64,000 nucleotides of DNA from Candidatus Bruticola sp. (GCA_051874735.1 JBJEGD010000026.1:91452-155451), one strand, 5' to 3'. Positions 29,980 through 50,597 are shown, numbered from the stretch's first letter. Numbers and translations are program-made. Notes: a model not told the origin generated them from the letters alone.

Positions 29980-30175
29980 TTGCTAGGGAGCTACGCTTAT
30001 AGAGCATTCGAAAAAGTTGAGCGGGTGGGCATCTCTAATAGTTGTAGCTCTCTTTTGGGGGGAATTTACGAAAACGTGAAATGCCGCGTTCTGCCGACAT
30101 TTTTTTTGGGTAAAAATGAGCGGCGCAGTTGCTATTTATAGTTTGTTGGAACCCTTAAAGGAGGTTCAAGTTTAA

Positions 30176-31171: not shown

Positions 31172-31184
31172 TTGAGGTGTTTTT

Positions 31185-32624: not shown

Positions 32625-32633
32625 GAGGTCGCA

Positions 32634-33194: not shown

Positions 33195-33214
33195 AAATGC
33201 GGAGGATAAACAGG

Positions 33215-33688: not shown

Positions 33689-34402
33689 ATGGAACAGGGA
33701 CTCATACATACTAGCGCTTGTATTGATGTCTTCGCCTCTCTTGGAGAGGGATGCCGAGTCGGAGCTATGGCTGTTATTGAAAGTGGAGCCCAAATTGGCT
33801 GCGGAGCTGAAATCGGTCCTAAAGTTTATATCGGACGCAACGTTTCTATCGGTGAAAGAGCTGTTATAAAGTGCGGTGCTGTTATTATGGATGGCGTTGT
33901 TGTTGGCAGAGAAGCGGTAGTCGAGTCGGGGGCTGTTTTGGGAATGGATGGCTTTGGATATGTTTTTGACGGACAAAGCCATCGTAAAATTCAGCAAATA
34001 GGCAATGTTGTCATTGGGCAGGGAGCGAAAATTGGCGCTTGTTCCTGTATAGACAGGGCCGCTTCTGCTTCAACGGTCGTTGGCGATCATACTGAAATAG
34101 GTCATATGGTGATGGTCGGTCATAACAGCAAGATTGGCAGCGGGTGTCGCATTGGTGATCAGAGCGGTTTAACTGGTTCCTCTCTGGTCGGTAACGATTG
34201 TATCATCGGCTCTCAGTGTGGTATAGGTGTGCGTGTTGAACTTGGCGATGGCTGTGTGTTGCTAGATCGAGCCACGGCTATGCGCAAATATGAGCCTGGG
34301 CAGGTTCTGGCCGGACATCCAGGACGACCGGTGGCGGAGGTTCGCCGTGCAGAAGCGGCTTTTAATTTGCTGCCTAAACTTTTAAAAGATTATATTGAGT
34401 AG
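33689..34402 (+). CDS. LpxD-like UDP-3-O-acyl-glucosamine N-acyltransferase lacking the N-terminal uridine-binding domain. It has only the left-handed beta-helix and the C-terminal helix.
   Basis: Begins exactly where the beta-helix of canonical LpxD begins. Has the GFGY motif and the catalytic GHN His. Only 237 aa versus about 330–340. Confidence 0.65.
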   Translation: MEQGLIHTSACIDVFASLGEGCRVGAMAVIESGAQIGCGAEIGPKVYIGRNVSIGERAVIKCGAVIMDGVVVGREAVVESGAVLGMDGFGYVFDGQSHRKIQQIGNVVIGQGAKIGACSCIDRAASASTVVGDHTEIGHMVMVGHNSKIGSGCRIGDQSGLTGSSLVGNDCIIGSQCGIGVRVELGDGCVLLDRATAMRKYEPGQVLAGHPGRPVAEVRRAEAAFNLLPKLLKDYIE

Positions 34403-36660: not shown

Positions 36661-37500
36661 ATGTGCAGAGCGCAGCGTACTTTGGCGAAAGAAGTTTCCT
36701 TCGAAGGAGTAGGGATTCATACTGGGAGAGCGAGTCACCTAACTATTAAGCCGGCTCCTGTCGATCACGGTCTCGTTTTTCTTAGTTCTGGAGAGTATAT
36801 CCCTGCTACCTATGAGTACGTTATTTCTACAAAGCGCTCTACAACGATTGGTAAGGGACAGGTCGCGGTAAATACTATCGAGCATTTAATGGCCGCTTTT
36901 GGAGGTCTTTCTGTGGATAATGCTCTTATAGAGATAGAAGGGCCGGAAGTTCCTATTTTAGACGGTTCTGCTTTGCCTTTTTGTCAGGCTATGGAAGAAG
37001 CAGGTATAGTTAATATCAAAGGCAGTGAAGTAGAAGATTATTATCTGAGCGAGCCCATTTTTGCTGCAGAAGGGGACAGTTTAGTTTTGGCTATGCCCGA
37101 TTCCCAATATAATCTTGAAGGAGCTGTCAGCTACAACAGTCCTCAAGTAGGTATTCAGCGATATCGTTACTGCGGATATGACAACTTTGTGACTCATATA
37201 GCTCCTGCTCGTACTTTTGGTTTTTGGTCTGAGGTAAAAACTCTCTTAGAAAACGGATTAGGGCAAGGTGGCGATCTGTCTAATGCTTTAATTTATGATC
37301 GTCCTGGTTTTAATGCTGCAGAAAATCAGCGTTTTGTCAATGAACCGGTGCGTCACAAAATTTTAGATTTAGCTGGTGATATTTGTCTGTTAGGTCGTCC
37401 GCTGTGTGCTTTTGTTTTGGCCGTTCGGGCTGGTCATAAATTGCATGTAGAATTCGTTCGCAAAATCGCTGAGGAGATGAAAAAAAATGCTGAATACTAA
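36661..37500 (+). CDS. lpxC: UDP-3-O-acyl-N-acetylglucosamine deacetylase.
   Basis: N-terminal QRTL…GVGIHTG and a C-terminal HKxLD…G motif. Size 279 aa. Confidence 0.9.
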   Translation: MCRAQRTLAKEVSFEGVGIHTGRASHLTIKPAPVDHGLVFLSSGEYIPATYEYVISTKRSTTIGKGQVAVNTIEHLMAAFGGLSVDNALIEIEGPEVPILDGSALPFCQAMEEAGIVNIKGSEVEDYYLSEPIFAAEGDSLVLAMPDSQYNLEGAVSYNSPQVGIQRYRYCGYDNFVTHIAPARTFGFWSEVKTLLENGLGQGGDLSNALIYDRPGFNAAENQRFVNEPVRHKILDLAGDICLLGRPLCAFVLAVRAGHKLHVEFVRKIAEEMKKNAEY

Positions 37501-37912
37501 AGATATATTGCACAGGATTAATTACAAAAGTCCTCTTTTTTTTGTTGATATTGTTAACGAGTTAGAGTTTCCTAAAATCTCTGGTTATAAAAATGTGACT
37601 ATGAGCGAGCCCCATTTCGCTGGACATTTCCCAGGCAAACCCATTATGCCTGGAGTACTACAAATGGAAGCTTTGGTACAGATTTGCCGACTTCTCTATA
37701 TAGGGAATGAAGAGGCTCCTATTAAAGTAAAAGAGCTCGATTTAGTTGGAGTTAAAAAATTTAAGTTTAGAACTCCTGTTGTTCCAGGAGATCGCCTCGA
37801 TCTTTATGCTGAAGAAATTGAGCGTAACAACGAAAATATAGTGCTATCTGTTAAAGCTTGCGTTGGAGATAATGTCGCTTGTGAAGGAATACTTTCTTTC
37901 AGTTGGCAATAA
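37487..37912 (+). CDS. fabZ: 3-hydroxyacyl-ACP dehydratase FabZ.
   Basis: Hot-dog fold motifs HFAGHFPGKPIMPGVL. Overlaps the lpxC stop by 14 nt. Confidence 0.9.
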   Translation: MLNTKDILHRINYKSPLFFVDIVNELEFPKISGYKNVTMSEPHFAGHFPGKPIMPGVLQMEALVQICRLLYIGNEEAPIKVKELDLVGVKKFKFRTPVVPGDRLDLYAEEIERNNENIVLSVKACVGDNVACEGILSFSWQ

Positions 37913-38028
37913 AAGGCGAACGCACGACCGTTTGCGGCTAGCTGTAGGAAATTTGCCATATACAGACGAAATTATAAACCGTTTTGTGTTCGCTTTTGCA
38001 TAGAGACAAAAATTGGAGGATAAGCATT

Positions 38029-38967
38029 ATGAAGCCGATTAAAGTTGGCGTGGTCGGCATTGGTAGTATGGGGAAAAACCATGCTCGAGTGTGCGCCGAA
38101 CTACCTCAAATTGAACTTACAGGCATGGTGGATCTCGATGAAGCCAGAGTCGCCCCTTTAGCTCAGCAGTACGGCACACAGTATTATAAAGATTATAAGA
38201 GTCTCTATGGCAAAATCGACGCTGTAGTTATTGTTGCACCTACACCGCTTCACTATCAAATCGCTCAAGATTTTTTGGAACAGGGCGTTCATGTCTTGGT
38301 AGAAAAGCCCATTACTGTAGAGGTAAGCGAGGCTAAACGGTTAGTGACTTCCGCTAAGGAAAAAAATCTTGTTCTGCAGGTAGGTCATTTGGAGCGTTTC
38401 AATCCAGCCGTAATAAAGCTTAAGCAGATGGTGAGCAAACCTGTGTTAATAGAATGCCACCGCCTTTCTGGGCCTACTACTCGCAGTCTCGATGTCGGTA
38501 TTATTTGGGATTTAATGATCCACGATTTTGATATACTTCTCAGTTTATATAAATCTCCAGTAGCCGAAATCCATGCTATGGGGACTTCTATCTATTCTAA
38601 ATTTGAAGATGTAGCTCACGTGCAAATGCGGTTTGAATGTGGGGCTGTAGCCAGTTTGGTAGCTAGTCGCAATTCCGGAGAAAGGAAGCGCAGTCTCAAA
38701 ATTACTGAAGATACCGGACGAGTTTTGTCTCTCGATTTTATTAACCAAACTTTAGTTATTTCTCGTCCTGGCCCCGATGGGCGTCCCCTAGATTTGGAGC
38801 CAGTTCACATCGAGAAAGAGGAACCTCTACGTTTGGAACTCAGCAATTTTGCAGATTGTGTGATTAATCACAAGGAACCTGTTGTATCCGGTGAGGATGG
38901 CAAGCGAGCTTTGGAATTAGCTGTTCACGTTTTGGAGAATATGCAAAAAATTACGCTTTCTAAGTAA
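38029..38967 (+). CDS. Gfo/Idh/MocA-family NAD(P)-dependent oxidoreductase. GnnA-like position between fabZ and lpxA.
   Basis: MKPIKVGVVGIGSMGKNHA Rossmann N-terminus and a C-terminal Gfo/Idh/MocA domain. Start set at the ATG after GGAGG. Confidence 0.75.
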   Translation: MKPIKVGVVGIGSMGKNHARVCAELPQIELTGMVDLDEARVAPLAQQYGTQYYKDYKSLYGKIDAVVIVAPTPLHYQIAQDFLEQGVHVLVEKPITVEVSEAKRLVTSAKEKNLVLQVGHLERFNPAVIKLKQMVSKPVLIECHRLSGPTTRSLDVGIIWDLMIHDFDILLSLYKSPVAEIHAMGTSIYSKFEDVAHVQMRFECGAVASLVASRNSGERKRSLKITEDTGRVLSLDFINQTLVISRPGPDGRPLDLEPVHIEKEEPLRLELSNFADCVINHKEPVVSGEDGKRALELAVHVLENMQKITLSK

Positions 38968-39017
38968 AGCAGCAATAAAAATTTTTCCGCTTAAAGTACA
39001 GAGAGGAGAGCCAAGAG

Positions 39018-39827
39018 GTGATTCATTCCAGCGCTATAGTACATCCCGGGGCACGCATCGGTGAGGGAGTAGAAATCGGACCTTTTTCTATTATCGGAGA
39101 AAATGTAGAAATTGGAGACGGAACTAAAATTATGTCTTCTGTCGTCATAGATGGATGGACAACTATAGGCAAAAATAACAAAATTTATCCGGGTGTATCT
39201 ATTGGTCTGGCACCTCAGGATTTCAGTTATAAAGGGCAGCGTTCATTTGTAACTATTGGTGATAATAATGAGTTCCGTGAATATGTGACTATTCATAGGG
39301 CTGCCGATGAAGATGGTATTACTTCTGTGGGTAGCGGCAATCTGCTTATGGCGAATGTACACATCGCTCATAACTGCCATATTGGTAGTCAAATTACTAT
39401 GGCTAATTATGCTGGTTTGGCTGGTCATACTGTAGTAGAAGATCAGGCGGTATTAGGTGGGCTTGTAGGTATCCATCAGCACACCCGCATCGGTCGTTTG
39501 TGTATGGTAGGCGGATGCTCCAAGATAAATAAAGATTTGCCGCCCTTCAGTATTGTCGATGGTAATCCTTGTCGTCTCTTTGGTATGAATTTCCGAGGCA
39601 TGCGGCGCCGTGACATTTCTAAGGAAAGTCGTTTAGCTGTTCATAAAGCTATCAATATTTTGGGCAGTTGTGGACTGACCTTAGACGCCGCTATAGAACG
39701 CATAGACAGTGAGTTGGAGCATACCCCTGAAATTGAACATTTCCTGACTTTCCTGCGCGGTGATTCTCATATGGGAGTTCTCAATAAAGCCGGCAACGTA
39801 GGGGCGAGAGCTCACAGTAACGCTTAA
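39018..39827 (+). CDS. lpxA: Acyl-ACP–UDP-GlcNAc (or GlcNAc3N) O-acyltransferase LpxA.
   Basis: Hexapeptide-repeat N-terminus SSAIVHPGARIGEGVEIGPFSIIG and the typical C-terminal helical domain. Confidence 0.9.
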   Translation: MIHSSAIVHPGARIGEGVEIGPFSIIGENVEIGDGTKIMSSVVIDGWTTIGKNNKIYPGVSIGLAPQDFSYKGQRSFVTIGDNNEFREYVTIHRAADEDGITSVGSGNLLMANVHIAHNCHIGSQITMANYAGLAGHTVVEDQAVLGGLVGIHQHTRIGRLCMVGGCSKINKDLPPFSIVDGNPCRLFGMNFRGMRRRDISKESRLAVHKAINILGSCGLTLDAAIERIDSELEHTPEIEHFLTFLRGDSHMGVLNKAGNVGARAHSNA

Positions 39828-39838
39828 TTGGTGCAGCT

Positions 39839-42286
39839 TTGACTGAAAATAGTCAGCAACAATCATCTGCTTATCCTCAGTTGACGGTTGCGATAATCGC
39901 CATAGAGCCTTCTGCCGATCTTCATGGAAGCAATTTGGCTAGGGCTCTTTTGGCGATTAATCCGCATCTAAAACTGGTCGGCGTAGGCGGATCGCATATG
40001 GCCGCGTCGGGAGTCAGTCTGTGGTTAAGGACCACAGACATGGCAGTTATTGGTCCCGGCGGGGCTATTGCTCGTTTGCCTAAATATATATGTTACTATT
40101 TGTACGTGCGCAGGCATTTGCTTAAGGAACATCCTCACCTCAGCATTTTAATAGACTGCCCCGCCGTTAACATGCGTTATGCTGGTCTTTTGACTCGCTA
40201 TGGCTATCATTCTGTTTATTACTTTCCCCCTTCTGCCTGGACAACCAGCGAAGTGCGTCTTAGACAGATTTTTAGCCGCACAGATAGGGTAATTTGTACC
40301 TTCTTGAGCAATGCCGAAAATTATCGCCGTCTGGGTATGGATGTAGATTTCTTCGGCCATCCTCTTATCGATATGCCCGAGTTAGGAATTTCTGCAGAAG
40401 AAGCTAAAAACAAGTTGGGGCTGGTAGGCGAAAATATTTTGGCTTTACTTCCGGGCAGTCGTGCTTCAGAAATAAAGTATCTATTGCCGATTTTTTTAGA
40501 AATAGTTGCTAAGTTGCATCAAGAAATAGAAAATTTGCAGGTACTTGTACCTTGTGCAACTCAGGCGCTTCGCAGGCAAATAGTTGCCTATATGGGGGAT
40601 AGGTTCCCTTATGTGCGTGTTTTAAATGGGCAGTCTCGTTTAGCCCTTTTAGCTTGTCGAGCAGCGTTGATGAGCTCTGGCACAGCTAGCCTGGAAGCTG
40701 CGATATTAGGCGCCCCAATGGTTCTGTCTTATAAACTTTGTCCCTTCGATGCTGTTATAGGTAAGTTCCTGATTTGGAGTGGTTTATTAAAAATTGAGCA
40801 TATCGGGTTGCCCAGTTTGGTCGCTGGACATCGCATTGTTCCAGAGTTTGTTCAAGATGAAGTTTCACCTGAAAATATTATCCCTCATTTGCGCAATTTT
40901 ATGCGAGATACTCCTGAGCGGTGCCAAATAAAACAAGATCTTTTAGATATGAGGAAGTCCATGGGCGCTCCTGGAGTAATTACCAAGATAGCCTCTTCTT
41001 TATATAGTCGCATTGAGAGCAGTGCTGCTGAAAGGATGGCTGAACCTTTCGACATTGTTATAACATCTAATTCTCCTGGAGAGGTGTCCACGTGGGTGCG
41101 ACGCACTGTTGCTCAGTTGGAGGTTAAAAACAAAGGGCAGTTTAGAGTTATAGTAGCGTTAGTTCCATGTCCTTATGCTTCCGGAGCTGAAGCTGAAGTC
41201 GCCGCTTCTCTGCCAGGCGTTTCCATTGTTCTGACGCCTAGTCAGACTGTGCGTTTAATGTGCGGCATGTTCAACGATTTTGAGCTGCGTAAAAAGGGAG
41301 TAGTAGTATTTTTAGGCGGTGATCTTATTCACGCTAAAATTTTGGCTTGGCGTTTAAAATATCGCTCTATAGCCTATGCAGCTAGATACAACAGGCTAAT
41401 CTACTATTTTGATAAAGTCGCTGCTTCAGATATTTCACTGGCCTCTGAATTATTAGAAGCTGGAGTTAATGAAGTTGTTAATATAGGTAATTTAAGTATT
41501 GATGGGGTTATTTCTGAAGTTGATAGGGAAGCAGCTGATAAAGTATCCCGTAGAACTGGCTTGAAGATTGGCATTTTCCCAGGATCGCGTTTTCTGCATA
41601 CTAAGATCGCTCTAGGAGTGTTTTTGCGTGTAGCTGCTCTAATAAAAACGCGTCACCCTGAGGTTGAATTTGTCCTTTCTGTATCGCCTTTTCTTTCCCC
41701 AGCTCGGCTGGAATCGGCACTTTGTAATCCTTTTAGTTTGGGGCTTCCGGTAGCTAAGGGTAAATTGCTCAGTGCTGATCGCATTGCAGTTGAGTGTATG
41801 TATGAAGATGAACAGGCTGCAGGACGCAGTTTTGAAGTTGAAGTTTTGTGGGGCCATCCTTATCAAGCTATTGCAGAAATAGATATGGCACTTACCATTC
41901 CGGGAACGAATACTGGAGAGTTGGGGTGTTGCGGCAAACCTATGGTAGTAGGACTTTCTGCTGATGCTTCCCTGCCCAGAGGAGGTTTGGGCGGCTTATT
42001 TGAAAGGATGCCAGTTTTATCAAAACTTAAGAGTTATTTGCGCTTGCGTTCTTATGCGCGTCACGGTTTCGCTGCGATCCCTAACCGTATTGCTTCTAGA
42101 GCTATCGTTCCTGAAGTTTTAGTAAAAAAAGATACGTCTGTGCTGGCCCAGCCTATTTTAGAGTGGATTGAAACTCCTGAGAAGTACGCCCGTGTTTCCC
42201 AAGATTTAAAAGACACTATGAGAACGACAGAGGGAGCGGGCAAGCGCATGGCTGAGTTGATCCTGGGTTTGGTTGATTCTAAATAA
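39839..42286 (+). CDS. lpxB: Lipid-A-disaccharide synthase fused in tandem to a second GT19 (LpxB-like) domain (815 aa).
   Basis: Residues 1 to about 390 carry the LpxB motifs LLPGSR and SSGTASLEAAILGAPMVLSY. Residues about 400–815 repeat them as IFPGSR and IPGTNTGELGCCGKPMVVGL. Confidence 0.8.
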   Translation: MTENSQQQSSAYPQLTVAIIAIEPSADLHGSNLARALLAINPHLKLVGVGGSHMAASGVSLWLRTTDMAVIGPGGAIARLPKYICYYLYVRRHLLKEHPHLSILIDCPAVNMRYAGLLTRYGYHSVYYFPPSAWTTSEVRLRQIFSRTDRVICTFLSNAENYRRLGMDVDFFGHPLIDMPELGISAEEAKNKLGLVGENILALLPGSRASEIKYLLPIFLEIVAKLHQEIENLQVLVPCATQALRRQIVAYMGDRFPYVRVLNGQSRLALLACRAALMSSGTASLEAAILGAPMVLSYKLCPFDAVIGKFLIWSGLLKIEHIGLPSLVAGHRIVPEFVQDEVSPENIIPHLRNFMRDTPERCQIKQDLLDMRKSMGAPGVITKIASSLYSRIESSAAERMAEPFDIVITSNSPGEVSTWVRRTVAQLEVKNKGQFRVIVALVPCPYASGAEAEVAASLPGVSIVLTPSQTVRLMCGMFNDFELRKKGVVVFLGGDLIHAKILAWRLKYRSIAYAARYNRLIYYFDKVAASDISLASELLEAGVNEVVNIGNLSIDGVISEVDREAADKVSRRTGLKIGIFPGSRFLHTKIALGVFLRVAALIKTRHPEVEFVLSVSPFLSPARLESALCNPFSLGLPVAKGKLLSADRIAVECMYEDEQAAGRSFEVEVLWGHPYQAIAEIDMALTIPGTNTGELGCCGKPMVVGLSADASLPRGGLGGLFERMPVLSKLKSYLRLRSYARHGFAAIPNRIASRAIVPEVLVKKDTSVLAQPILEWIETPEKYARVSQDLKDTMRTTEGAGKRMAELILGLVDSK

Positions 42287-42356
42287 TATGAAAATTCCTA
42301 ATGAAAATTGCCAAAATATTGCTACTCCTTTTATTTTCAAGTGGCGAGGCTTGATT

Positions 42357-42941
42357 ATGGCAGTAGTGACGGCTATCATACTGGCTGCTGCCAAGCCAAC
42401 TTTAGTTACCTGCTGCTGGGGAATTGGCTTTGTACTTTTAGGAGAGCTGTTGCGTTCATGGGCTTTGGGCTGGACTGGAGAACATACACGTAGTCAGGAA
42501 TTAATGGCGTCTTTTTTAGTTACTGGCGGTCCTTATAAATACATACGCAATCCACTGTACTTAGGCAATATTTTAAACGGATTTGGGGTTATGGTTGCTG
42601 CTTCTGGAGCTATGTCGTATTTGGGAACGGCTGCTTTGTGGGCTTTTGGTCTTCTATCTCTTTATATGGTTTATGCTTCATGTATAATCGCTGAAGAAGC
42701 TTTCTTGGCTATGCGTTTTGGTGATCTCTTCTTCCGCTACAGAGCAGTTACGCCGACCATTGTACCGCGTTGGGGAGATTATCTCGATTTTATAAGCAGT
42801 TTTTTCAATTTCTCTTCCTGTACAGATGTTCAATATGAAGGGAGAGGCTTCTTCTCTTGGCAATCTTTAAAATTTGAATATAGTACTTGGGGATGGATAA
42901 TTGCTGTTTGGTCTTGTTTATTTATAAAAGCTTTCATGTAA
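42357..42941 (+). CDS. ICMT/PEMT-family membrane methyltransferase-like protein (LmtA-like candidate).
   Basis: Multi-transmembrane protein with an RNPLYLG motif of the isoprenylcysteine carboxyl methyltransferase family. Start chosen at the ATG 7 nt after GAGG. The track start at 42273 overlaps lpxB. Confidence 0.5.
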   Translation: MAVVTAIILAAAKPTLVTCCWGIGFVLLGELLRSWALGWTGEHTRSQELMASFLVTGGPYKYIRNPLYLGNILNGFGVMVAASGAMSYLGTAALWAFGLLSLYMVYASCIIAEEAFLAMRFGDLFFRYRAVTPTIVPRWGDYLDFISSFFNFSSCTDVQYEGRGFFSWQSLKFEYSTWGWIIAVWSCLFIKAFM

Positions 42942-42943
42942 AA

Positions 42944-42984
42944 ACATTTAGTGCTTATCCCCTGCCTTAGGCTGGGATAAGCAC
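42944..42984 (-). terminator. Hairpin terminator for the convergent minus-strand operon.
   Basis: 11-bp stem GTGCTTATCCC/GGGATAAGCAC followed by AAATGTTTTT on the minus strand. Confidence 0.45.
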
Positions 42985-43026
42985 TTGACCAGGCTATGTT
43001 ATATGCTGCTATTCTCTAGTTAATAG

Positions 43027-44232
43027 TTAAGGCCGCATGGAAATCTCGGTTAAAATTTGAGCCATGCGGGCTGCTCCTCCGGGAGGGCCTAGTCTCTCTT
43101 GGCCGATAGATCCGCGCCGTTGCCGATCAGCTTTGTCTTGCATTAGGCGACATAGAGTTTCGATTATATCGGGATCGTAATCTTCACAAACAATAAGAGC
43201 CTCACCGAGCAGCCCCTTTTGTCTGGCCCTATACCACTTTAAACGAGTCTCTCCGCCTGGTTCATAAGCAACAACAGGAATACCGTGACCAGCCGCTTGT
43301 TCATGTGCTGTGCCCGCCAATCCTAGAGCGACTTGACTGTATTTTAGTACATCAGCTAGATGGCCTTTGATAAGAAAGAACTGAACTTGATACTCCGCCT
43401 TGTTGTCTGCAAGTTTAAGTTCGCTCCAACCCGGATAAGGTGCTTCGTTCATAACAAAACCCGGACAGGCCTGTGCTAACTTTGAGGTATCAATAGATGG
43501 AGCTACGGCAATAAAGGCACAAATTTTCTTATTTAAGCGTTGAGACAGCTGGCAACTTATTTCTAAAAGGCGAGGCAGTACCCTGTAAGTAGCTTGTCTG
43601 CTGCCGGGAAAGAGAGCTAGGCCTATTTCTTTGCTGCTGTCTAGACTGAAGTCCAGTTCTTGAGGAACCAAACCATCCATCATAGCATTACCTACCCAGA
43701 TAGCTTTAACTCCTTTTTGACGCAGACTGGCAGCTGTAGGTTCATCTCGGACAATAGAGCGAACTTTGAAAGTTCTCAGAACCCAAGCTTCTAGAGCTGA
43801 GTAAGGATGATGATAGTCAGATTTAGCCGTGCCAATGAAGGTTATTGGGCGTATACCAGATAGGGCAGCTAGAATAACTGGCCAAAGATCGCCGACAGCG
43901 GCAATGTGATTGAAACGGTGACGATTTGAGCGCAGCCAAAACAGCTGTTTTAAAGTTAAATAGGCTAAGCCGCCGCCAAGATCTTTCCAAAAATTACGCC
44001 AATCTTCTTGAATAAGGCCGCCGCTGGGCATGTCGCTGACAGGGCCGTTTATGGGAGCTATTCCTTTGTACGCTGAGCCTTCTCCAACCAAAGGTAAAGC
44101 TTCTATATCGATTGATTTAGGCAGCTCCTTAATTATCTGGGCAGCTATGGAATCTTCACCGGCTCCGTTAGATACAAGTAAAAGGCGTTGAGGGGCGGGC
44201 ATAATCTCTCCTTTTAAGTTTTTTAGCAGCAA
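43027..44232 (-). CDS. GT19-family lipid-A-disaccharide-synthase-related glycosyltransferase (third LpxB-like domain in the window).
   Basis: LALFPGSR motif and ALGLAGTAHEQAAGHGIPVVAY, equivalent to the LpxB ASGTA…PMVV block. Confidence 0.6.
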   Translation of the reverse strand: MLLKNLKGEIMPAPQRLLLVSNGAGEDSIAAQIIKELPKSIDIEALPLVGEGSAYKGIAPINGPVSDMPSGGLIQEDWRNFWKDLGGGLAYLTLKQLFWLRSNRHRFNHIAAVGDLWPVILAALSGIRPITFIGTAKSDYHHPYSALEAWVLRTFKVRSIVRDEPTAASLRQKGVKAIWVGNAMMDGLVPQELDFSLDSSKEIGLALFPGSRQATYRVLPRLLEISCQLSQRLNKKICAFIAVAPSIDTSKLAQACPGFVMNEAPYPGWSELKLADNKAEYQVQFFLIKGHLADVLKYSQVALGLAGTAHEQAAGHGIPVVAYEPGGETRLKWYRARQKGLLGEALIVCEDYDPDIIETLCRLMQDKADRQRRGSIGQERLGPPGGAARMAQILTEISMRP

Positions 44233-44234
44233 AT

Positions 44235-45080
44235 TTAAGCTAAACTTATCAACTTACAGTGACTTAGCTGTGGATTATCCATATTGTATTCAATTTCATT
44301 TATATGTTTGGCGAATGCACCAGTTTGTACAATAAAAGAACCATTAACTTGACAAGGTGAGTCCAGTTGGGTATGGGTATGGCCTCCTAAAATCCAGGTG
44401 CCTGGCGGCGTATTAACCGCCAATTGCTGATCTCGGTCAAAACCTATGTGACTGATGATAACTAAATTAGTTCTTAGACCTAATTTAGCTGAGCAGCGAT
44501 CAGCTATCTGAGGCAAAGTTGTCTCTGCTTTGAAAAAACGAAAACCAAATATTTTTTCCCATATGGCATTATGAGGGTATTGCACCGGCATGGCTGATAA
44601 AATCAGCAAGGCACAATTTGAGCTCCAAGAGCTGTTAAAAAGCGCCAGACCGGGAATCCAGCGCTCTGAGGATAGTTCTTGCCAGGCCGAGGAGTTACGC
44701 CAGTTAGCAGAACTGCAGTCTATTATTGGTATATCTTGAATTTGCTCGACAAATTCGCGCTGAGTTAAATGACCACTAAGACGTATATCAGACAAATTAG
44801 TACAGATAAGCGGAAAAGAACGCTGTCTAGCTCTTTTGTCTAGAATACGCCTTTGATAATTGAACTCTCGATTGCCCATAGCCATGGCTGCGCAGCCGAC
44901 AGAACTCATTTTATCTAAGTTTGGTTCAAAGTTTTTCCATACTGTGTTAGAACCGATTAGAGCGTCGCCGCTGTCAAAATAAAGGGCTTGACCTGCGGCT
45001 ATAGAGGCCTGGGCCTGGCTTTTGAGCCAAGCCAAAGCCTCGCTGCGTCCGTGCATATCGTTGGTATGATAAATAATCAT
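44235..45080 (-). CDS. Calcineurin-like metallophosphoesterase. Candidate UDP-2,3-diacylglucosamine hydrolase analog.
   Basis: Metallophosphoesterase motifs DMHG, DSGD, GNREF and GGHTH. Positioned between lpxD and the LpxB-like gene. Confidence 0.6.
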   Translation of the reverse strand: MIIYHTNDMHGRSEALAWLKSQAQASIAAGQALYFDSGDALIGSNTVWKNFEPNLDKMSSVGCAAMAMGNREFNYQRRILDKRARQRSFPLICTNLSDIRLSGHLTQREFVEQIQDIPIIDCSSANWRNSSAWQELSSERWIPGLALFNSSWSSNCALLILSAMPVQYPHNAIWEKIFGFRFFKAETTLPQIADRCSAKLGLRTNLVIISHIGFDRDQQLAVNTPPGTWILGGHTHTQLDSPCQVNGSFIVQTGAFAKHINEIEYNMDNPQLSHCKLISLA

Positions 45081-45105
45081 GCAACTTAGAGATGACTTAT
45101 AACAA

Positions 45106-45678
45106 TCAATTTTTGCTTCGCTGGGAAACTTTTGAGCTTCTTTCCTGAGCTACTTCGGTATAGACTTGACGGTAGCGATCTATTCCTATATATCTACAAA
45201 TTACTATACCGTAACCTATTATCCAACCGACTCCAGCTAGAGAAGCACCACCCAAACATACCCCTAATATTAAACCAATGCATCCGAAAATTAAACTGTT
45301 TAGCATAGGCTTAGAATCTAGTGATATTGAGTAACCTAAAGAAAGCCCAATAATAGCTCCCACTAGTCCGTAGTAACTACCTTTGCCTATATCTGCAGCC
45401 GTGGTTGCAATAGCCAAACTCGCTTTAGCTGCCTGCACAAGTGAATATTCAGACTGGCCAGCATCGATAATGGAGTTCGCTCCCCACAAGAATCCCATCA
45501 TCAGTCCCATGCCGGCGAAGCAGAGGCAGTACAAAGTCCTCTGTTGTTTGGTAAGAAAAGTTACAGACTGTTCTGTATTACTAGTCTTATTCGCGGTAGA
45601 CGATGAATTTTTTTTATCTTGCTTAGCGTTTTTCTTTTCTTTTTTTTTGCTGTCTTTGAGAGACGCCGGATCACTCAT
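45106..45678 (-). CDS. Membrane protein with a Lys-rich N-terminus and glycine-zipper transmembrane helices.
   Basis: Hydrophobic GxxxG-rich C-terminal half. In an operon with lpxD, with an 8-nt overlap. Confidence 0.45.
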   Translation of the reverse strand: MSDPASLKDSKKKEKKNAKQDKKNSSSTANKTSNTEQSVTFLTKQQRTLYCLCFAGMGLMMGFLWGANSIIDAGQSEYSLVQAAKASLAIATTAADIGKGSYYGLVGAIIGLSLGYSISLDSKPMLNSLIFGCIGLILGVCLGGASLAGVGWIIGYGIVICRYIGIDRYRQVYTEVAQERSSKVSQRSKN

Positions 45679-46654
45679 GTTTTTTATCTTTGTCCTTCAG
45701 AGATAATTTTGCCAATTTTTTTATTTGCTCCCATTTTTTTAAAGGAAGCTGACGCATCGCAATTTGGCGCATCGATACTTTATGTGCTTGAACGGGATCG
45801 CCGGACCACACTGACTGACCGGCTGGAATATCTTTATCCACGCCCGATCTAGCTGCTACTGTGGCAAAATCGCCGATATGACGCCCTTCTTTTACCAAGC
45901 ATTGGCCGGCGGCTATGGATAATTTTCCAATATAAGCTCTCTCCTGCAGACAGTTTTGAGAAATAATTATAGCCATAGGCTCTATAATAGATTCTTTGTT
46001 AATGCAGGCTAAATTGTCTATGCGCACTCCTTGATGAATAAGTGCTTTCCTGCCTATAAAGCAGCGAGCACCTATTTCAATATCACTTCCCAAAGAAGCT
46101 TCATCTTCGATAATGGTTAGCGGCCCTACTAAACTTGAACCTTCCAATTTTACTTTTTTCCCTAAAGAAACTCCGGGCATCAATTTAGTGTCAGCTCCTA
46201 CAAAGCTGTCGCTATCTATGCTGACATGAGCTTGAATTTGGCAGTTATCGCCAATGGTTACTCCATCTGCTATAACGGCAAAGGGGCCTATATAGGCTGT
46301 AGGAGATATGTTGGCAGAATCGCTTATGCAAGCACTTTCGTGTATCCCCGGCTTAAAGCGAAAAGGAGGATAATACAAATCGAGGAGCTTAGCATAGGCT
46401 ACTCGAGAATTTTTCACTAATATAGCCGGAATATTTGTTTGTATTTTTTCGGGTATAATTACTGCAGCAAAGCCGAGGTGCACTGCTTCTTGTAGTGAAC
46501 TTTCGTCTTCAGCGAAAGTAATTGCCGAGTTTAGATTGTGACTTAAAGCTGCGTCCATACCTGTGACTTCTTTTATAACCAGAGAAGCACTTTCCGGTAT
46601 GTTCAGACGACCTTCAAGATAATCGGCCAGCTCTTTTAAGTTCTTTACCACCAT
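45671..46654 (-). CDS. lpxD: Full-length UDP-3-O-acylglucosamine N-acyltransferase LpxD.
   Basis: N-terminal L.ELA..L.G domain, hexapeptide repeats with the catalytic His (LIHQGV), and a C-terminal helix. 327 aa. Confidence 0.85.
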   Translation of the reverse strand: MVVKNLKELADYLEGRLNIPESASLVIKEVTGMDAALSHNLNSAITFAEDESSLQEAVHLGFAAVIIPEKIQTNIPAILVKNSRVAYAKLLDLYYPPFRFKPGIHESACISDSANISPTAYIGPFAVIADGVTIGDNCQIQAHVSIDSDSFVGADTKLMPGVSLGKKVKLEGSSLVGPLTIIEDEASLGSDIEIGARCFIGRKALIHQGVRIDNLACINKESIIEPMAIIISQNCLQERAYIGKLSIAAGQCLVKEGRHIGDFATVAARSGVDKDIPAGQSVWSGDPVQAHKVSMRQIAMRQLPLKKWEQIKKLAKLSLKDKDKKHE

Positions 46655-47964
46655 AATTCAGGATAATCACTCCAAGTTTCTGCCGGATCTATATCCGCTT
46701 CTTCTAATGTTAGACTGCGTACAGCCAAGGGAACGCACATGGTACGCCCGTTCAAAACTGATTCATAACCTAAACCTATCAAGTCTGCTCCCAAGAGATC
46801 GGTGTAGTTAGCCCTGACAATAAACTGGGGCACTCGGCAAATAGGGCGGCCGTGGTGCAGCAAGAAAGCTGTCTCGCATCGCCTAGCAAACTGTCCCTCT
46901 TTTTTCAGGTGACTAGGAAGAGGAGTCAACCTGTCCAATAAAATGCCAAAGTCTGTCTTAGCGCATAATTCGCCTAAAGAATAGTCTCCGCCTTTGAGAA
47001 TTAAATTAGAATGACCAGGTTTAGGTGGCTGTCCCCAAGGACGCACTGCCGAACCGTTAGGTACAACTCCGCAGGCTCTCGCTGTGCTTAAATCGTAAAT
47101 GCCGCCTACTAGTTCGCCTTGGCGTATTAGTGGTAGTGATGTTTTAGTAATTCCTTCACCGTCAAAAGGTACACTGCCAAAGCCTCTGGGTAAAGACGCA
47201 TCATCCGTTATATTTATGCAAGGGGACAGCCACGGAGAATTTTTGGGTAAAGATTTAAAAAGCGGTGCATCAGCATAAAGCATTTCTTTGGCGAAATCTT
47301 CGAGTAATTTACCGCAGGCGCTCGATGTAAATACGCCAGGAATCGTATTGCTATCTGGCCAGGCCATCTCTGTGGAATGTACGGAACGCCAGGTTAACCT
47401 GCAGAGCATTTCTGCAGGAGAATGCTGAGCAGAAGTACTGTAGATGGCGTCTCCCACAGGTATACCGTCGTTGGAGTTTAAAGTTAGCAGATGTAGAATG
47501 CGGCTGGCACAGCGCTCTCCGCTTCTAGTTGTGATTTTTAACGTATGCTGCAATAACCTGGCACTAAGAGAAAAACGCCTGTTGGGCAACAAAGAAGGAA
47601 GCATAAAATCAAGCCCTTGAATTAAGGCTTTAAAATGCATAATTGAATCTTCGAGTTGTTGCGAAGTTTCAGAGATGTTGGAAACTGAGGTAGGAGAAAT
47701 TAAGCCCTTTTGTGAGAATGAACCGCGCTTGCCGTTGGCCGCACTTTGGGCAGCTTTCTGTAGTAAATCGCTAATGGAAAATTCTCCCTCAGACCAAACA
47801 TAACCAAGACGTCCGTCTATATTTATTCTGAGCCCTAGTCCGGGTTTAAATATACGCTGATCAGGCTGAGCTAAGTTGACTTCTGTATAAACTTCTTCGG
47901 AAACTTCAGCATCTCTGGCCATACCGAGTGCTTTGACCAGCAGTTGATTTGCATAACTGGCCAT
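46645..47964 (-). CDS. TldD/PmbA-family metalloprotease-like protein.
   Basis: About 440 aa. C-terminal region with …RP.G.PPKPGHSNLILKGG…G…V..L.G… resembles the PmbA/TldD C-domain. Moderate confidence. Confidence 0.5.
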   Translation of the reverse strand: MASYANQLLVKALGMARDAEVSEEVYTEVNLAQPDQRIFKPGLGLRINIDGRLGYVWSEGEFSISDLLQKAAQSAANGKRGSFSQKGLISPTSVSNISETSQQLEDSIMHFKALIQGLDFMLPSLLPNRRFSLSARLLQHTLKITTRSGERCASRILHLLTLNSNDGIPVGDAIYSTSAQHSPAEMLCRLTWRSVHSTEMAWPDSNTIPGVFTSSACGKLLEDFAKEMLYADAPLFKSLPKNSPWLSPCINITDDASLPRGFGSVPFDGEGITKTSLPLIRQGELVGGIYDLSTARACGVVPNGSAVRPWGQPPKPGHSNLILKGGDYSLGELCAKTDFGILLDRLTPLPSHLKKEGQFARRCETAFLLHHGRPICRVPQFIVRANYTDLLGADLIGLGYESVLNGRTMCVPLAVRSLTLEEADIDPAETWSDYPELWW

Positions 47965-47966
47965 AG

Positions 47967-48614
47967 TTATTCTTTATTTCCCAAAATCAGTATATTATAG
48001 GGCAGTACTTCCATATCTGATAGAAGTTTTTGATAATTTGGTTCGCATATAGACGTGCTGTTTTCATTAGGAAGCTTAAGCAACCAAAGTTGCTCCACAG
48101 AGTCAACTTGACTAACTTCGGCGCCATTAATAGCTGCCCACTGTCTGGCTACTCTTCGGCTGTTTTGAGCATCCAGATATAAGAAGCAGTATTGTAGGTT
48201 CTGTTTTGTAACTATTTTTACGAAACTTTCTAATCCGGAAGCAGAGTCCTGAGCAGAAGCTCCCCGCAAATCTAGACATGGAGTTCCTTTAAATACAGAA
48301 GCTTGAGAATGAGTTAATTTTGTTAATAGATCTGATTTCAGATGTTTTGAACTTTGAGAATGATTTTGGGAGGCTTCAGGAAGAGTGCTGTAATTATTTA
48401 AAACAACCTCAGCTTGAGGATCTAAATAGCGTCTTAAGGTGCCCTGCAGTCCTTTAACTAGAAAGGCCGTTGGCAATCCGGGAGCAAAGCGCTCCAGACT
48501 GACATTTAATCTATTTAATTCTTTATCGAAACTAAAGCTTGTGAAACGTACCCCCTCATCATTAAAAGTTTTAGTCAATTTATTTAAAATTTCCTCAGGG
48601 GTATACTTATCCAT
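47967..48614 (-). CDS. Hypothetical protein (215 aa).
   Basis: ORF with stop/start adjacency to the TldD-like gene. No family recognised. Confidence 0.45.
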   Translation of the reverse strand: MDKYTPEEILNKLTKTFNDEGVRFTSFSFDKELNRLNVSLERFAPGLPTAFLVKGLQGTLRRYLDPQAEVVLNNYSTLPEASQNHSQSSKHLKSDLLTKLTHSQASVFKGTPCLDLRGASAQDSASGLESFVKIVTKQNLQYCFLYLDAQNSRRVARQWAAINGAEVSQVDSVEQLWLLKLPNENSTSICEPNYQKLLSDMEVLPYNILILGNKE

Positions 48615-48827: not shown

Positions 48828-50597
48828 TTAGAAAACGGCTGTACCTGGATCTGTTTTAGCTTGCTGGTAAAAATCTTGCCAGAGTTTTTTCTCATTGTTC
48901 ATGCGTTCAACGCTGACATTTTTACTCTTAATTTTTGCGACTATGTCTTGCCGACTGCGTTCTACTTCTTTGAAACGACCTGGTTTCCAAGCGTACTCGT
49001 CAAGATTGTATATATCGCGGTTGCGGTACTCTCCCACTTTATAAAGGACAGCGTAATTTTTTTCCATGTAGTACAAAGTTTCAAACGAAAAAGGATTAAG
49101 TTTGTTAGCTTTTTCGAAACACTGAGCTGCATCGTAGAAATAACTCTCTACAGGACGGTTTTTATCCTGAGCTTTATCGCCTTTGCGTAAGCGCTCGTAT
49201 CGGTATATACCCGCCCTTAAGTAACTTTGCCCTTGATTAAATTTAAATGAGGAATAAGTCCAGAAGCCAAGAGCGACAGCTATGATTAAAGGTCCTATCA
49301 CCAGAGCGAAGATGCTAGCTGCTTTATATGTGGCGGTGGAGTCTCCTTTGTCTTTGGGGGCATTACCGGACACAATGCGCTCTCTGGCAGCATAAAAATC
49401 TTGTTCTATAGTTTCTTTAGTTTTGGAAGCTAAAGCCCTTATTTTAGCTTCGTATCGGTTAGAAGCCATGATTTTTGTGCATATATCGGAGGCCGCTTCT
49501 AAAAAACCAGAGTGACCGATCTCTTCAGCCATTAACAGCCAATCCTCAGGATCGCTGCTGGTAATTTCGTGAATAACTTCACCTGGGCGAATGGAATCAT
49601 CTAGTTCCAACGCTTTGGAAAAATGGACTGCTGCTCTTTCTGGTTCGCCTATGGCCATAGAACATAGGCCTAAGCCATAGTGAGCATCAATATTATTAGG
49701 GAAGCGTTTCAGACTATTCTGAATATCAAAGTGCAGCTCTGAGAATTTTCCTTTGTCGAAAAGCTCAAGCTGTTCTTCCGTAAAAATATTGGCGATTTTG
49801 CGGGAAGTTACTGGAATTTTAGGAGTTGTCGACTGAGAGTTTTGCTCAGCTTCGACCTTTACTACATTTTGGGATACCGAAGGAGTTGCGGGCGGTACCG
49901 TAGGCTGCGAAGATAGCTGTGCTGACCTTTCTGTTGGTATATTCGCAGAGGTTGGGGCTGTCTGAGGATATCCCGGCTGCATAGGTCTGGGCTGGGGCGG
50001 TCTGCCTCCCGGTGTACCTGCGAGCACGGGAGCAGACTGAGGGTATCCCGTCTGCATAGGTCTGGGCTGGGGCGGTCTGCCTCCCGGTGTACCTGCGAGC
50101 ACGGGAGCAGACTGAGGGTATCCCGTCTGCATAGGTCTGGGCTGAGGCGGTCTGCCTCCTGGTGTACCTGCGGGCATGGGAGCAGACTGAGGATATCCCG
50201 TATGCGTAGGTCTGGGCTGAGGCGGTCTTCCTCCTGGTGTACCTGCGGGCATAGGAGCAGACTGAGGATATCCCGTCTGCATAGGTCTGGGCTGAGGCGG
50301 TCTTCCTCCTGGTGTACCTGCAGGCATGGGAGCAGACTGAGGATATCCCGTCTGCATAGGTCTGGGCTGAGGTAGTCTTCCTCCTGGCGTATTTAAAGGC
50401 ATGGGAGCAGACTGAGGGTGTCCCGGATGCATGGGGCTAGGCTGGGGGGGACGGGGAGTATAGCTTTGCCTTGATGAATACGGTTGAGATGTACTGGGAA
50501 TTGCAGTTTGAGCACTGAAATTATCCGCAGGAGTACCCTGGCTATCCTGCTGGTCTTGTAGTGTTAAATTGCTGCGCGGAGGCATTTGCATGCTCAC
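48828..50597 (-). CDS. Pro-rich tandem-repeat / TPR membrane protein (589 aa).
   Basis: Six near-identical 26-aa repeats, PMQTGYPQSAPMPAGTPGGRPPQPR, encoded by 78-bp DNA repeats at about 49975–50450. A TPR-like segment, one transmembrane helix and a C-terminal domain follow. Confidence 0.65.
   Translation of the reverse strand: MSMQMPPRSNLTLQDQQDSQGTPADNFSAQTAIPSTSQPYSSRQSYTPRPPQPSPMHPGHPQSAPMPLNTPGGRLPQPRPMQTGYPQSAPMPAGTPGGRPPQPRPMQTGYPQSAPMPAGTPGGRPPQPRPTHTGYPQSAPMPAGTPGGRPPQPRPMQTGYPQSAPVLAGTPGGRPPQPRPMQTGYPQSAPVLAGTPGGRPPQPRPMQPGYPQTAPTSANIPTERSAQLSSQPTVPPATPSVSQNVVKVEAEQNSQSTTPKIPVTSRKIANIFTEEQLELFDKGKFSELHFDIQNSLKRFPNNIDAHYGLGLCSMAIGEPERAAVHFSKALELDDSIRPGEVIHEITSSDPEDWLLMAEEIGHSGFLEAASDICTKIMASNRYEAKIRALASKTKETIEQDFYAARERIVSGNAPKDKGDSTATYKAASIFALVIGPLIIAVALGFWTYSSFKFNQGQSYLRAGIYRYERLRKGDKAQDKNRPVESYFYDAAQCFEKANKLNPFSFETLYYMEKNYAVLYKVGEYRNRDIYNLDEYAWKPGRFKEVERSRQDIVAKIKSKNVSVERMNNEKKLWQDFYQQAKTDPGTAVF

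Follow-up and report, generated by a model that had tools for sequence, protein, structure and literature searches.

A predicted cytoplasmic metallophosphoesterase of Vulcanimicrobiota lipopolysaccharide gene clusters as a candidate lipid X-forming hydrolase

The window, that is the whole 64,000-nucleotide stretch of Candidatus Bruticola (Vulcanimicrobiota) DNA analysed here, contains an approximately 27-kb cluster of outer-membrane and lipopolysaccharide (LPS) genes, within which a string of six minus-strand open reading frames (ORFs) occupies positions 43027-48614. One of the six encodes a metallophosphoesterase (hereafter the phosphoesterase) that we assign to the LPS pathway from its sequence and gene context. 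The role that fits it best is that of a UDP-2,3-diacylglucosamine pyrophosphatase, a reading to which we give about an even chance, and the protein is a good candidate for a fourth, non-orthologous hydrolase forming lipid X, the acceptor required by LpxB. In the literature searched, which extends to 2026, LpxH, LpxI and LpxG are the only enzymes described for this reaction. The analysis rests on fold, active-site conservation, predicted cytoplasmic location, synteny and gene fusions, and the features on which it draws are collected in Table 1.

Table 1. Features of the lpx cluster and of the adjoining minus-strand gene string (window coordinates)
Position	Strand	Feature	Basis
33689..34402	+	Short LpxD, 237 aa, with catalytic His-Asn motif and without N-terminal UDP-binding domain	NF002060, alignment
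36661..39827	+	lpxC, fabZ, GnnA-like UDP-GlcNAc 3-dehydrogenase, lpxA	Family models
39839..42286	+	815-aa fusion of canonical LpxB (N-terminal half) and a second, divergent LpxB-like GT-B domain (LpxB2)	TIGR00215
42273..42941	+	ICMT/PEMT-family membrane methyltransferase, weakly LmtA-like	Family models, synteny
42950..42985	.	Perfect 12-nt inverted repeat between the convergent ICMT-like and TIGR03492 genes	Sequence
43027..44202	-	TIGR03492 'lipid-A-disaccharide synthase-related' GT-B protein, 391 aa from ATG 44202	NCBIfam score, start codon and ribosome-binding site
44235..45080	-	281-aa cytoplasmic (predicted) single-domain metallophosphoesterase ('GNRE family'), candidate UDP-2,3-diacyl-GlcN(3N) pyrophosphatase	
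45106..45678	-	190-aa membrane protein, no known family	At least 3 hydrophobic segments; jackhmmer orthologues
45671..46654	-	LpxD-like left-handed beta-helix protein, 327 aa	Sub-cut-off LpxD scores; His missing
46645..47964	-	PmbA/TldD-like protein	PF19289, E 1.8e-29
47967..48614	-	215-aa hypothetical protein, first gene of the compact string	ORF; kept in closest relatives

The six minus-strand genes are packed as the preliminary description of this DNA had proposed, with overlaps of 10 and 8 nt and gaps of 2, 25 and 32 nt at their junctions, and a search for internal terminators within the string gave no convincing candidate. The inverted repeat that separates the string from the convergent methyltransferase gene is likely to be a bidirectional terminator. 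The labels given earlier to the TldD/PmbA-like gene and to the small membrane protein were likewise borne out (Table 1). Orthologues of the membrane protein lie directly upstream of the phosphoesterase gene in 29 loci, and it is possible that this protein serves as a membrane anchor for the phosphoesterase and its TIGR03492 partner. The 215-aa hypothetical protein matches no Pfam or NCBIfam family, and its gene is conserved in the window's closest relatives (loci L003-L012 and L014). In these same loci, and in L016-L017 and L019-L020, the PmbA/TldD-like and LpxD-like genes are found together near the cluster.

The 237-aa LpxD scores 207 against NF002060, exactly the cut-off, its H145 aligns with H239 of E. 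coli LpxD, and the His-Asn motif is kept in all orthologues; it is likely to be the true N-acyltransferase. The 815-aa ORF exceeds the TIGR00215 cut-off of 190.25 with 248.6 bits, and its N-terminal half is identified on this sequence evidence as the canonical LpxB. The two halves of the fusion are 23% identical and are encoded as separate genes in other lineages. No ORF of at least 120 aa in the window matched the LpxH, LpxI, LpxK or WaaA models, which agrees with the earlier remark that no recognisable LpxH or LpxI is present.

The preliminary description had read the minus-strand genes as a second lipid A operon in pathway order, with a full-length lpxD. That would amount to a second, parallel pathway whose successive steps are carried out by the 327-aa LpxD-like protein, by the phosphoesterase and by the LpxB-like enzyme. 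The gene order does mirror the order of the pathway, and the LpxD-like protein retains the N-terminal, UDP-binding domain of LpxD. However, it falls below both LpxD cut-offs (163.7 against 207 and 143.6 against 242.5), and in alignments with the A. baumannii and C. trachomatis enzymes Lys220 stands where these have their catalytic His. This His is missing from all 17 aligned sequences (that of the window and 16 orthologues), and the protein is therefore probably non-catalytic. Furthermore, no second lpxA or lpxC was seen alongside the string, and most relatives have their LpxD-like and PmbA-like genes outside the phosphoesterase-TIGR03492 operon, the pair instead continuing the main lpx operon. 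A minus-strand operon of its own results from a rearrangement limited to the window's closest relatives. We thus consider a parallel pathway highly improbable, and neither the label of full-length lpxD nor that of a second lipid A operon was upheld.

The gene directly 3' of the phosphoesterase, described previously as a GT19 LpxB-like gene at 43027-44232, is indeed related to LpxB, but it belongs to TIGR03492 (score 273.7, cut-off 219.2) rather than to LpxB itself: its Pfam LpxB score of 21.1 lies under the threshold of 22.6, TIGR00215 gives no match, and another gene of the same cluster encodes the canonical LpxB. Its start is most likely the ATG at 44202, which stands behind a GGAG ribosome-binding site and agrees with the NCBI call, and not position 44232. 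The protein shares with LpxB the GT-B fold, the phosphate-binding PGSR motif, the ribose-binding T...E motif and an acidic residue where LpxB has its base. The motifs NGxGED, GD105, PGSR199-202 and GTAxEQ are invariant. An hhalign comparison with the LpxB of the window gave a probability of 88.8% (E 2.5e-6) with only the C-terminal half aligned, and a sequence search of the PDB with the TIGR03492 profile gave no match.

Synteny ties the phosphoesterase closely to this partner. Its gene lies within or beside the lpx cluster in 35 Vulcanimicrobiota-type loci, and every one of the more than 30 genomes of this type that were covered has it in the lipid A cluster. In all 33 Vulcanimicrobiota-type loci that carry both genes TIGR03492 follows directly 3' on the same strand; 16 of these pairs overlap by 4 nt, and 12 are separated by 6-32 nt. 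This adjacency is kept between proteins only 30-40% identical, and two highly divergent proteins (P0104 and P0269) are in-frame fusions of the two; for the P0104 fusion, AF2 modelling gave a pLDDT of 91 and a pTM of 0.77, which, with no PAE map, is no proof of a defined interface. In Vulcanimicrobiota the small membrane protein, the phosphoesterase and the TIGR03492 protein form a fixed module at the 3' end of an lpxD-lpxC-fabZ-gnnA-lpxA-lpxB-lpxB2-methyltransferase cluster, and in most relatives this module runs on from the main lpx operon, the ICMT/PEMT-type methyltransferase gene lying between LpxB2 and the module. In addition, relatives of the phosphoesterase in Armatimonadota-type loci are encoded directly after kdsD and/or kdsC in 27 of 49 cases, and occur there without an adjacent TIGR03492 gene. 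The lpx-cluster context, the pairing and fusions with TIGR03492 and the kdsD/kdsC context in Armatimonadota together lead us to regard the phosphoesterase as an LPS-pathway enzyme. It could instead be a phosphoesterase or nucleotidase of the ordinary housekeeping kind that merely happens to lie beside lipid A genes, as its generic annotations and sub-threshold Pfam score would allow. Yet adjacency retained at such low identity, the frequent 4-nt overlaps, two independent fusions and a second LPS context in another phylum make this very unlikely, to the point that we give it hardly any credence. As the Armatimonadota gene lies beside Kdo genes, not lpx genes, other LPS-related roles are compatible with the data as well.

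The sequence of the phosphoesterase carries a complete dimetal site. The motifs listed in the preliminary description, DMHG (residues 8-11), DSGD (36-39), GNRE (69-72) and GGHTH (232-236), are all present and conserved across the family; in the family alignment the metal ligands D39, N70, H211, H234 and H236 are invariant and H10 nearly so, and the DxH motif occurs in all full-length members. The AF2 model (pLDDT 95.3) has a metallophosphoesterase fold. The His of the usual GNH(D/E) motif is replaced by Arg in all 66 single-domain matches of the relative search and in all 69 short representatives of a second set, whereas the long canonical 5'-nucleotidases from the same search retain GNH[DE]. 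These two sets alone are independent with respect to GNRE conservation; in the loci collected by motif pattern it is circular, because the pattern contained GNRE.

The protein has no N-terminal extension. Its DxH motif begins at residue 8, so that no signal peptide is present, and an ORF start further upstream is impossible. The 66 single-domain matches, 186-286 aa long, are full-length proteins, and each of the 12 N-termini inspected opens directly in the catalytic domain. The phosphoesterase is hence predicted to be cytoplasmic, which fits a step at the cytoplasmic face. It is the sole predicted cytoplasmic phosphohydrolase of the cluster, whose other conserved unknown (614 aa) carries a signal peptide. 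Family members are typically about 240 aa long (235-300 aa) and have no nucleotide-binding C-domain. No family model or name was found in the libraries searched, existing annotations of relatives are generic ('metallophosphoesterase', '5'-nucleotidase / UDP-sugar diphosphatase'), and every member with a taxon name is from Vulcanimicrobiota (Eremiobacterota) or Armatimonadota. We propose that they constitute an uncharacterised family of cytoplasmic dimetal phosphoesterases derived from the catalytic N-domain of UshA/5'-nucleotidases.

Homology to the 5'-nucleotidase/UshA clade, a relationship that had been raised at the outset, is clear: the N-terminal metallophosphoesterase domain of E. coli UshA, CD73, NadN, CpdB and SoxB is homologous to the phosphoesterase. 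Orthology, by contrast, was rejected, because the phosphoesterase is a single-domain protein that lacks the PF02872 C-terminal substrate-binding domain, the signal peptide and the catalytic His-Asp dyad, the UshA sequence GNHEFD having become GNREFN/H in the family. The end of motif V also differs, with GGH(T/S)H in place of the GGHSQ of UshA. The same comparison bears on a further possibility, namely that the phosphoesterase scavenges nucleotide products as a cytoplasmic UDP/UMP (or CMP) hydrolase and so relieves product inhibition, which in Vulcanimicrobiota would affect the three LpxB-type transferases and in Armatimonadota the transfer of Kdo. Its ancestry, its association with nucleotide-sugar-using enzymes in both phyla and its fusion to a UDP-binding GT-B protein are all in line with such a function. 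To our knowledge, however, the C-terminal domain binds the nucleoside in all characterised 5'-nucleotidases, and by length and profile matches the phosphoesterase does not have this domain; the dyad is lost, and since UDP and UMP are normally recycled, it would be unusual for an operon to encode a hydrolase dedicated to them and fused to a transferase. We therefore view scavenging as improbable.

The phosphoesterase resembles LpxH in its superfamily fold and dimetal motifs, in its predicted cytoplasmic location without a signal peptide and in being encoded among LPS genes. Both proteins have exchanged the His of GNH(D/E) for Arg (GNRD in LpxH, GNRE here), a change described as occurring 'only in LpxH', where the Arg binds the beta-phosphate (PMC5016852). 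Direct similarity was not detected, and the profile comparison with LpxH suggested earlier came out negative: no LpxH model was among the NCBIfam matches at E <= 0.01, the family profile found no LpxH in the PDB at E <= 1, and a phmmer query with an E. coli LpxH sequence gave no match at E 10 in the window and the fetched loci. Unlike LpxH, the phosphoesterase falls in the 5'-nucleotidase/UshA branch, depends on pairing with an obligate GT-B partner and lacks the helical lipid-binding insertion, only 22 residues separating H211 and H234; this absence speaks against the hydrolase role, and any acyl-chain site is putative. LpxI constitutes the DUF1009 family, and identity with LpxI was rejected for the phosphoesterase, which is a metallophosphoesterase; no window ORF matched an LpxI model. 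LpxI is itself unrelated to LpxH (PMC4807358). Chlamydial LpxG (CT461) is also calcineurin-like and was recruited independently for UDP-diacylglucosamine hydrolysis (PMC4807358), so that enzymes of this superfamily have been drawn into the step on more than one occasion. The GNHD motif and N-terminal transmembrane helix of LpxG (PMC4807358) are both absent from the phosphoesterase. The earlier suggestion that the gene is a positional candidate for the hydrolase step is strengthened by the lpx-cluster synteny, the translational coupling or fusion to TIGR03492, the predicted cytoplasmic location and the His-to-Arg change.

The same module might act later, in a head-group step rather than in lipid X formation. 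In one version of this proposal, the disaccharide intermediate would lose its 1-phosphate or a nucleotide remnant, and TIGR03492 would transfer a sugar afterwards or in a coupled reaction, giving a lipid A with a non-canonical head group, phosphate-poor or glycosylated. The position of the module downstream of LpxB, LpxB2 and the methyltransferase in the operon is consistent with this, as is TIGR03492 itself, in which all the residues that an active inverting UDP-sugar glycosyltransferase should have are kept, the putative base D105 among them. Also in favour, neither lpxK nor waaA was detected in the cluster, and a 'four-enzyme' lipid A pathway has been described for Cyanobacteria and Dictyoglomi, with cyanobacterial LPS described as free of Kdo and phosphate (PMC3087551). 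Against it, the known phosphatases that act on the 1- and 4'-positions of lipid A are PAP2 enzymes of the periplasm, whereas the phosphoesterase is predicted to be cytoplasmic. Moreover, the His-to-Arg change is linked in the one characterised precedent to pyrophosphate recognition and not to monoesterase chemistry, and the Armatimonadota relatives do without an adjacent TIGR03492. On balance we think a later step unlikely, though it deserves consideration.

For the preferred role in UDP-2,3-diacylglucosamine hydrolysis, we infer the substrate, the function of Arg71 and the mechanism of partnership as follows. The membrane protein, TIGR03492 or both would keep the phosphoesterase on the inner side of the cytoplasmic membrane, and Arg71, in place of the usual catalytic His, would bind the beta-phosphate as Arg80 does in LpxH. 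TIGR03492, which appears to retain the UDP-binding residues of LpxB, could supply the substrate binding normally given by the 5'-nucleotidase C-domain, or could take the product directly. Any such partnership model is speculative, since neither protein has a characterised function. If the assignment is correct, the phosphoesterase would represent a new, non-orthologous enzyme for UDP-diacylglucosamine hydrolysis in endotoxin synthesis.

All six minus-strand open reading frames (ORFs) that the preliminary description placed in a second lipid A operon were recovered at 43027-48614, where they encode, from 5' to 3', a 215-aa hypothetical protein, a PmbA/TldD-like protein, a 327-aa LpxD-like protein, a 190-aa membrane protein, a 281-aa metallophosphoesterase (hereafter the phosphoesterase) and a TIGR03492 protein. 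Along this string the first two genes lie 2 nt apart, the next two junctions overlap by 10 and 8 nt, and the last two are spaced by 25 and 32 nt; a terminator scan of the string gave nothing above shuffle expectation. A 12-nt perfect inverted repeat lies between the convergent 3' ends of the TIGR03492 gene and an adjacent methyltransferase gene. The TIGR03492 gene is present as described, except that its start most likely lies not at 44232 but at an ATG at 44202 with GGAG upstream, giving 391 aa, as NCBI calls it. In the gene for a TPR protein directly upstream of the string, on the same strand, a 75-nt unit (25-aa, proline-rich; 92% matching) is repeated 6.4 times in tandem at 49962-50444.

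Candidatus Bruticola belongs to the Vulcanimicrobiota (formerly Eremiobacterota), class Xenobia, and its string sits within a large envelope-biogenesis cluster, listed in the table below. In line with the earlier observation that no recognisable LpxH or LpxI is encoded in the window, its ORFs of at least 120 aa gave no match to LpxH, LpxI, LpxK or WaaA models. The 614-aa protein encoded between lpxD and lpxC is kept, where the locus reaches across the region, in most relatives of the Vulcanimicrobiota type; as an alternative hydrolase it is ruled out by its signal peptide. A GnnA-like gene lies between fabZ and lpxA in the window and in every relative with a locus covering this part of the cluster, which suggests a lipid A based on GlcN3N; no GnnB-type aminotransferase was found in the window. 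If DUF3084, strongly matched in the window, and DUF3370 are cyanobacteria-associated domains, their presence hints that Vulcanimicrobiota and cyanobacteria have envelope features in common.

Features of the envelope cluster, of the rest of the window and of related loci (window coordinates unless a locus is named)
Feature	Coordinates	Strand	Remarks
Sugar-1-phosphate nucleotidyltransferase fused to phosphoglucosamine/phosphohexose mutase-like domain	1206-4445	+	1079 aa
BamA	26887-29979	+	unusually long, 1030 aa
Three OmpH/Skp-like ORFs and an unassigned 479-aa ORF	26887-33688 (stretch including BamA)	+	after BamA
Short LpxD	33689-34402	+	catalytic His-Asn present, UDP-binding N-domain absent
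614-aa exported protein	34614-36458	+	clear signal peptide; no family, weak DUF3370 match
LpxC, FabZ, GnnA-like dehydrogenase, LpxA		+	in this order after the 614-aa protein
GnnA-like Gfo/Idh/MocA dehydrogenase	37984-38967	+	274.9 bits with the UDP-GlcNAc 3-dehydrogenase model, under its cut-off (450)
LpxB fused to second LpxB-like domain	39839-42286	+	815 aa
ICMT-type methyltransferase	42273-42941	+	after the LpxB fusion
TIGR03492 protein	43027-44202	-	391 aa
Phosphoesterase	44235-45080	-	281 aa
LpxD-like protein	45671-46654	-	327 aa
TPR protein	48828-50597	-
DUF3084 protein	53945-54949	+	strong match
LptC, LptB, LptF/G			beyond the minus-strand string
Methyltransferase/Rce1-like protease feature, locus L083	9131-9901
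Methyltransferase/Rce1-like protease feature, locus L084	9185-9976

We then compared 80 loci encoding relatives of the phosphoesterase, labelling their ORFs by BLASTP against the window proteins. The TIGR03492 gene follows the phosphoesterase gene on the same strand in every Vulcanimicrobiota-type locus (L001-L029, L031, L058, L074 and the additional loci L083-L085), and orthologues of the small membrane protein are encoded directly upstream of it in 29 loci. The two genes overlap by 4 nt in 16 loci and by 8-52 nt in five; they lie 6-32 nt apart in 12 and 262-380 nt apart in two. Moreover, the two proteins form a single polypeptide in two lineages, as an in-frame fusion in L085 and as a second, very different fusion of 650 aa (P0269) found in an exhaustive protein search. 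In most lineages the genes form one co-directional array: lpxD, the 614-aa protein gene, lpxC, fabZ, gnnA-like, lpxA, lpxB, lpxB2 (encoding a second, divergent LpxB-like protein), methyltransferase, small membrane protein, phosphoesterase and TIGR03492. An inversion of the distal block that placed it next to the LpxD-like and PmbA-like genes is restricted to the window's closest relatives (L003-L012, L014), and the apparent second operon is a product of it. A literal second lipid A pathway, as first proposed from the gene order of the string, is therefore very unlikely.

More distant relatives, of the Armatimonadota type (24-30% identity, GNRE motif kept), are encoded directly after kdsD and/or kdsC in 27 of 49 loci, and representatives of the kdsD and kdsC gene clusters score above the NCBIfam cut-offs. 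A conserved operon in loci L032-L082 (Armatimonadota, Zipacnadia, Hebobacteria) runs, in order, through kdsD, kdsC, the GNRE-phosphoesterase gene, a gene for a LIC_10190-like polytopic membrane protein and one for a GT2 glycosyltransferase. In several further loci of this set the phosphoesterase gene instead faces a convergent gene for a Gfo/Idh/MocA oxidoreductase. Conserved synteny in two phyla, together with translational coupling and a pair of fusions, places the phosphoesterase by prediction in LPS or lipid A synthesis, alongside an LpxB-related protein. That it is a housekeeping enzyme in an incidental position, as its generic annotation might allow, is scarcely credible beside this conservation.

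A protein from a Candidatus Bruticola MAG that is 100% identical to the phosphoesterase is annotated as hypothetical, and a family profile search returned 776 clusters, the named ones all from Eremiobacterota/Vulcanimicrobiota or Armatimonadota and bearing generic names only. When 26 family members were combined into a profile, it hit the E. coli UshA/5'-nucleotidase in its N-terminal catalytic domain (E 1e-30), and LpxH sequences were not matched even at E 1. The nearest characterised relative is UshA, which cleaves UDP-sugars. The phosphoesterase (AlphaFold model pLDDT 95.3) lacks the substrate-binding C-domain because its C-terminus coincides with the end of the UshA N-domain, and lacks a signal peptide because its DxH motif starts at residue 8. 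The motifs reported previously are present and are conserved in the family: D39, N70, H211, H234 and H236 are invariant metal ligands, H10 is nearly so, and the DxH motif occurs in all full-length members. The GNH(D/E) histidine is replaced by an invariant Arg, and the partnering Asp of UshA GNHEFD by Asn or His. GNRE was found in 66 of 66 single-domain matches of a first search and, among the best 150 matches of the exhaustive search (1.84 billion proteins), in all 69 short representatives, the long canonical nucleotidases there being nearly all GNH[DE]; its presence in the 80 genome loci adds no separate support, since the scan pattern included GNRE. Members from the Bruticola clade, which comprises the window's closest relatives, also share a confidently modelled insertion of ~40 aa between motifs III and IV (residues about 100-145), absent from all family members outside that clade.

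Sequence-model, profile and phmmer tests exclude membership of LpxH, LpxG or LpxI, and a classical 5'-nucleotidase is ruled out by the missing C-domain, signal peptide and His-Asp dyad. A scavenger of nucleotide products, which kinship with UshA might bring to mind, appears improbable. The His-to-Arg replacement has been described as occurring 'only in LpxH' among metallophosphoesterases (PMC5016852), and the phosphoesterase reproduces this special Arg at its catalytic site. LpxG differs in both respects, with an intact GNHD and a transmembrane helix (PMC4807358). The phosphoesterase represents a new branch, uncharacterised so far, whose mode of action is plausibly LpxH-like.

Two neighbouring genes had been mislabelled. 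The 327-aa protein, described as a full-length LpxD, scores below both LpxD cut-offs and is ruled out as a working LpxD by the missing catalytic histidine: Lys220 aligns with that residue of solved LpxD structures, and the histidine is absent in 16 of 16 orthologues. The His-Asn motif is kept in every orthologue of the short LpxD. LpxD features are thus split over two paralogues, the longer having the N-domain; a mixed trimer, or a role in presenting substrate, can be imagined. Similarly, the gene described as LpxB-like falls below the Pfam LpxB threshold and matches TIGR03492, 'lipid-A-disaccharide synthase-related' (273.7 versus a cut-off of 219.2). The genuine LpxB is encoded instead by the N-half of the 815-aa ORF (248.6 bits versus a cut-off of 190.25), whose second domain is a highly divergent LpxB-like GT-B domain (23% identity to the N-half; PGSR and T...E kept). 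LpxB and LpxB2, fused here, are encoded by separate neighbouring genes in non-Xenobia relatives, so that the lineage has three LpxB-type proteins.

The invariant TIGR03492 motifs NGxGED, GD, PGSR and GTAxEQ correspond to E15/S17, D98, P198-R201 and T277/E281 of LpxB, which are UDP-phosphate-binding, ribose-binding and catalytic residues (PMC5785501). By hhalign the window's LpxB is related to TIGR03492 over the C-terminal half only (probability 88.8%), and the TIGR03492 profile found no PDB match by sequence. An AF2 model of a natural fusion is confident per domain (pLDDT 91.2), with a pTM of 0.77; the underlying alignment misplaced the TIGR03492 N-termini. The model is suggestive, not proof, of a defined domain arrangement, and it neither establishes nor refutes a fixed interface. 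Literature searches on TIGR03492 or LpxB-like proteins, and on lpx gene content in Eremiobacterota or Armatimonadota, found nothing relevant. An ICMT/PEMT-family membrane methyltransferase gene lies between lpxB2 and the membrane protein, phosphoesterase and TIGR03492 genes in almost all relatives (exceptions, L015 and L074), and matches the model of Leptospira LmtA, a lipid A Kdo2 1-phosphate O-methyltransferase, weakly (42.7 bits). Two relatives encode an Rce1-like CPBP protease next after TIGR03492, recalling the eukaryotic Rce1/ICMT pair.

To our knowledge, UDP-2,3-diacylglucosamine hydrolysis is the sole Raetz-pathway step with non-orthologous enzymes, and the searched literature, up to 2025-2026, names only LpxH, LpxI and LpxG and no fourth. 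Among Raetz steps, the cluster lacks only this hydrolase. UDP-2,3-diacylglucosamine, or a GlcN3N analogue given the conserved GnnA-like gene, is the obvious cytoplasmic pyrophosphate substrate of the pathway. The interpretation proposed earlier is supported in part and, for its central point, the positional candidacy, strengthened. Because of substrate fit, the missing step, UshA kinship and the LpxH-like Arg, we favour, with evenly balanced confidence, a UDP-diacylglucosamine pyrophosphatase. The phosphoesterase would hydrolyse UDP-diacylglucosamine, and TIGR03492, perhaps with the membrane protein, would bind the substrate or receive the product. The main rival is a later head-group reaction performed with TIGR03492, which we consider unlikely. 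A doubtful possibility is that phosphoesterase, TIGR03492 and membrane protein form one machine, in which the reduced UshA-type domain borrows the LpxB-like protein in trans for substrate binding, so that cleavage of one UDP-diacylglucosamine molecule would be coupled either to glycosyl transfer from a second or to a new head-group reaction.

If true, this one-machine arrangement would be a fourth, mechanistically distinct route to lipid X, would give TIGR03492 its first function and might hint at how bacteria without recognised LpxH, LpxI or LpxG make lipid A. LpxH is an active antibiotic target. A fourth enzyme drawn from the UshA/5'-nucleotidase lineage, with a convergent LpxH Arg, would illustrate the ease with which this step is reinvented. 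It would also improve LPS-pathway annotation in two diderm phyla that are widespread and little studied; gut-associated Xenobia such as this Bruticola belong to one of them. Vulcanimicrobium alpinus, described as a Gram-negative bacterium that has an outer membrane and is rich in iso-3-hydroxy fatty acids (PMC9758169), offers a cultured system with potential for testing the proposal, and complementation in E. coli would be similarly direct. TIGR03492 and the GNRE phosphoesterases, both without known function, are now tied to lipid A synthesis, in bacteria whose lipid A appears unusual: probably GlcN3N-based, possibly methylated and, as the genes point to, made using three LpxB-type transferases.
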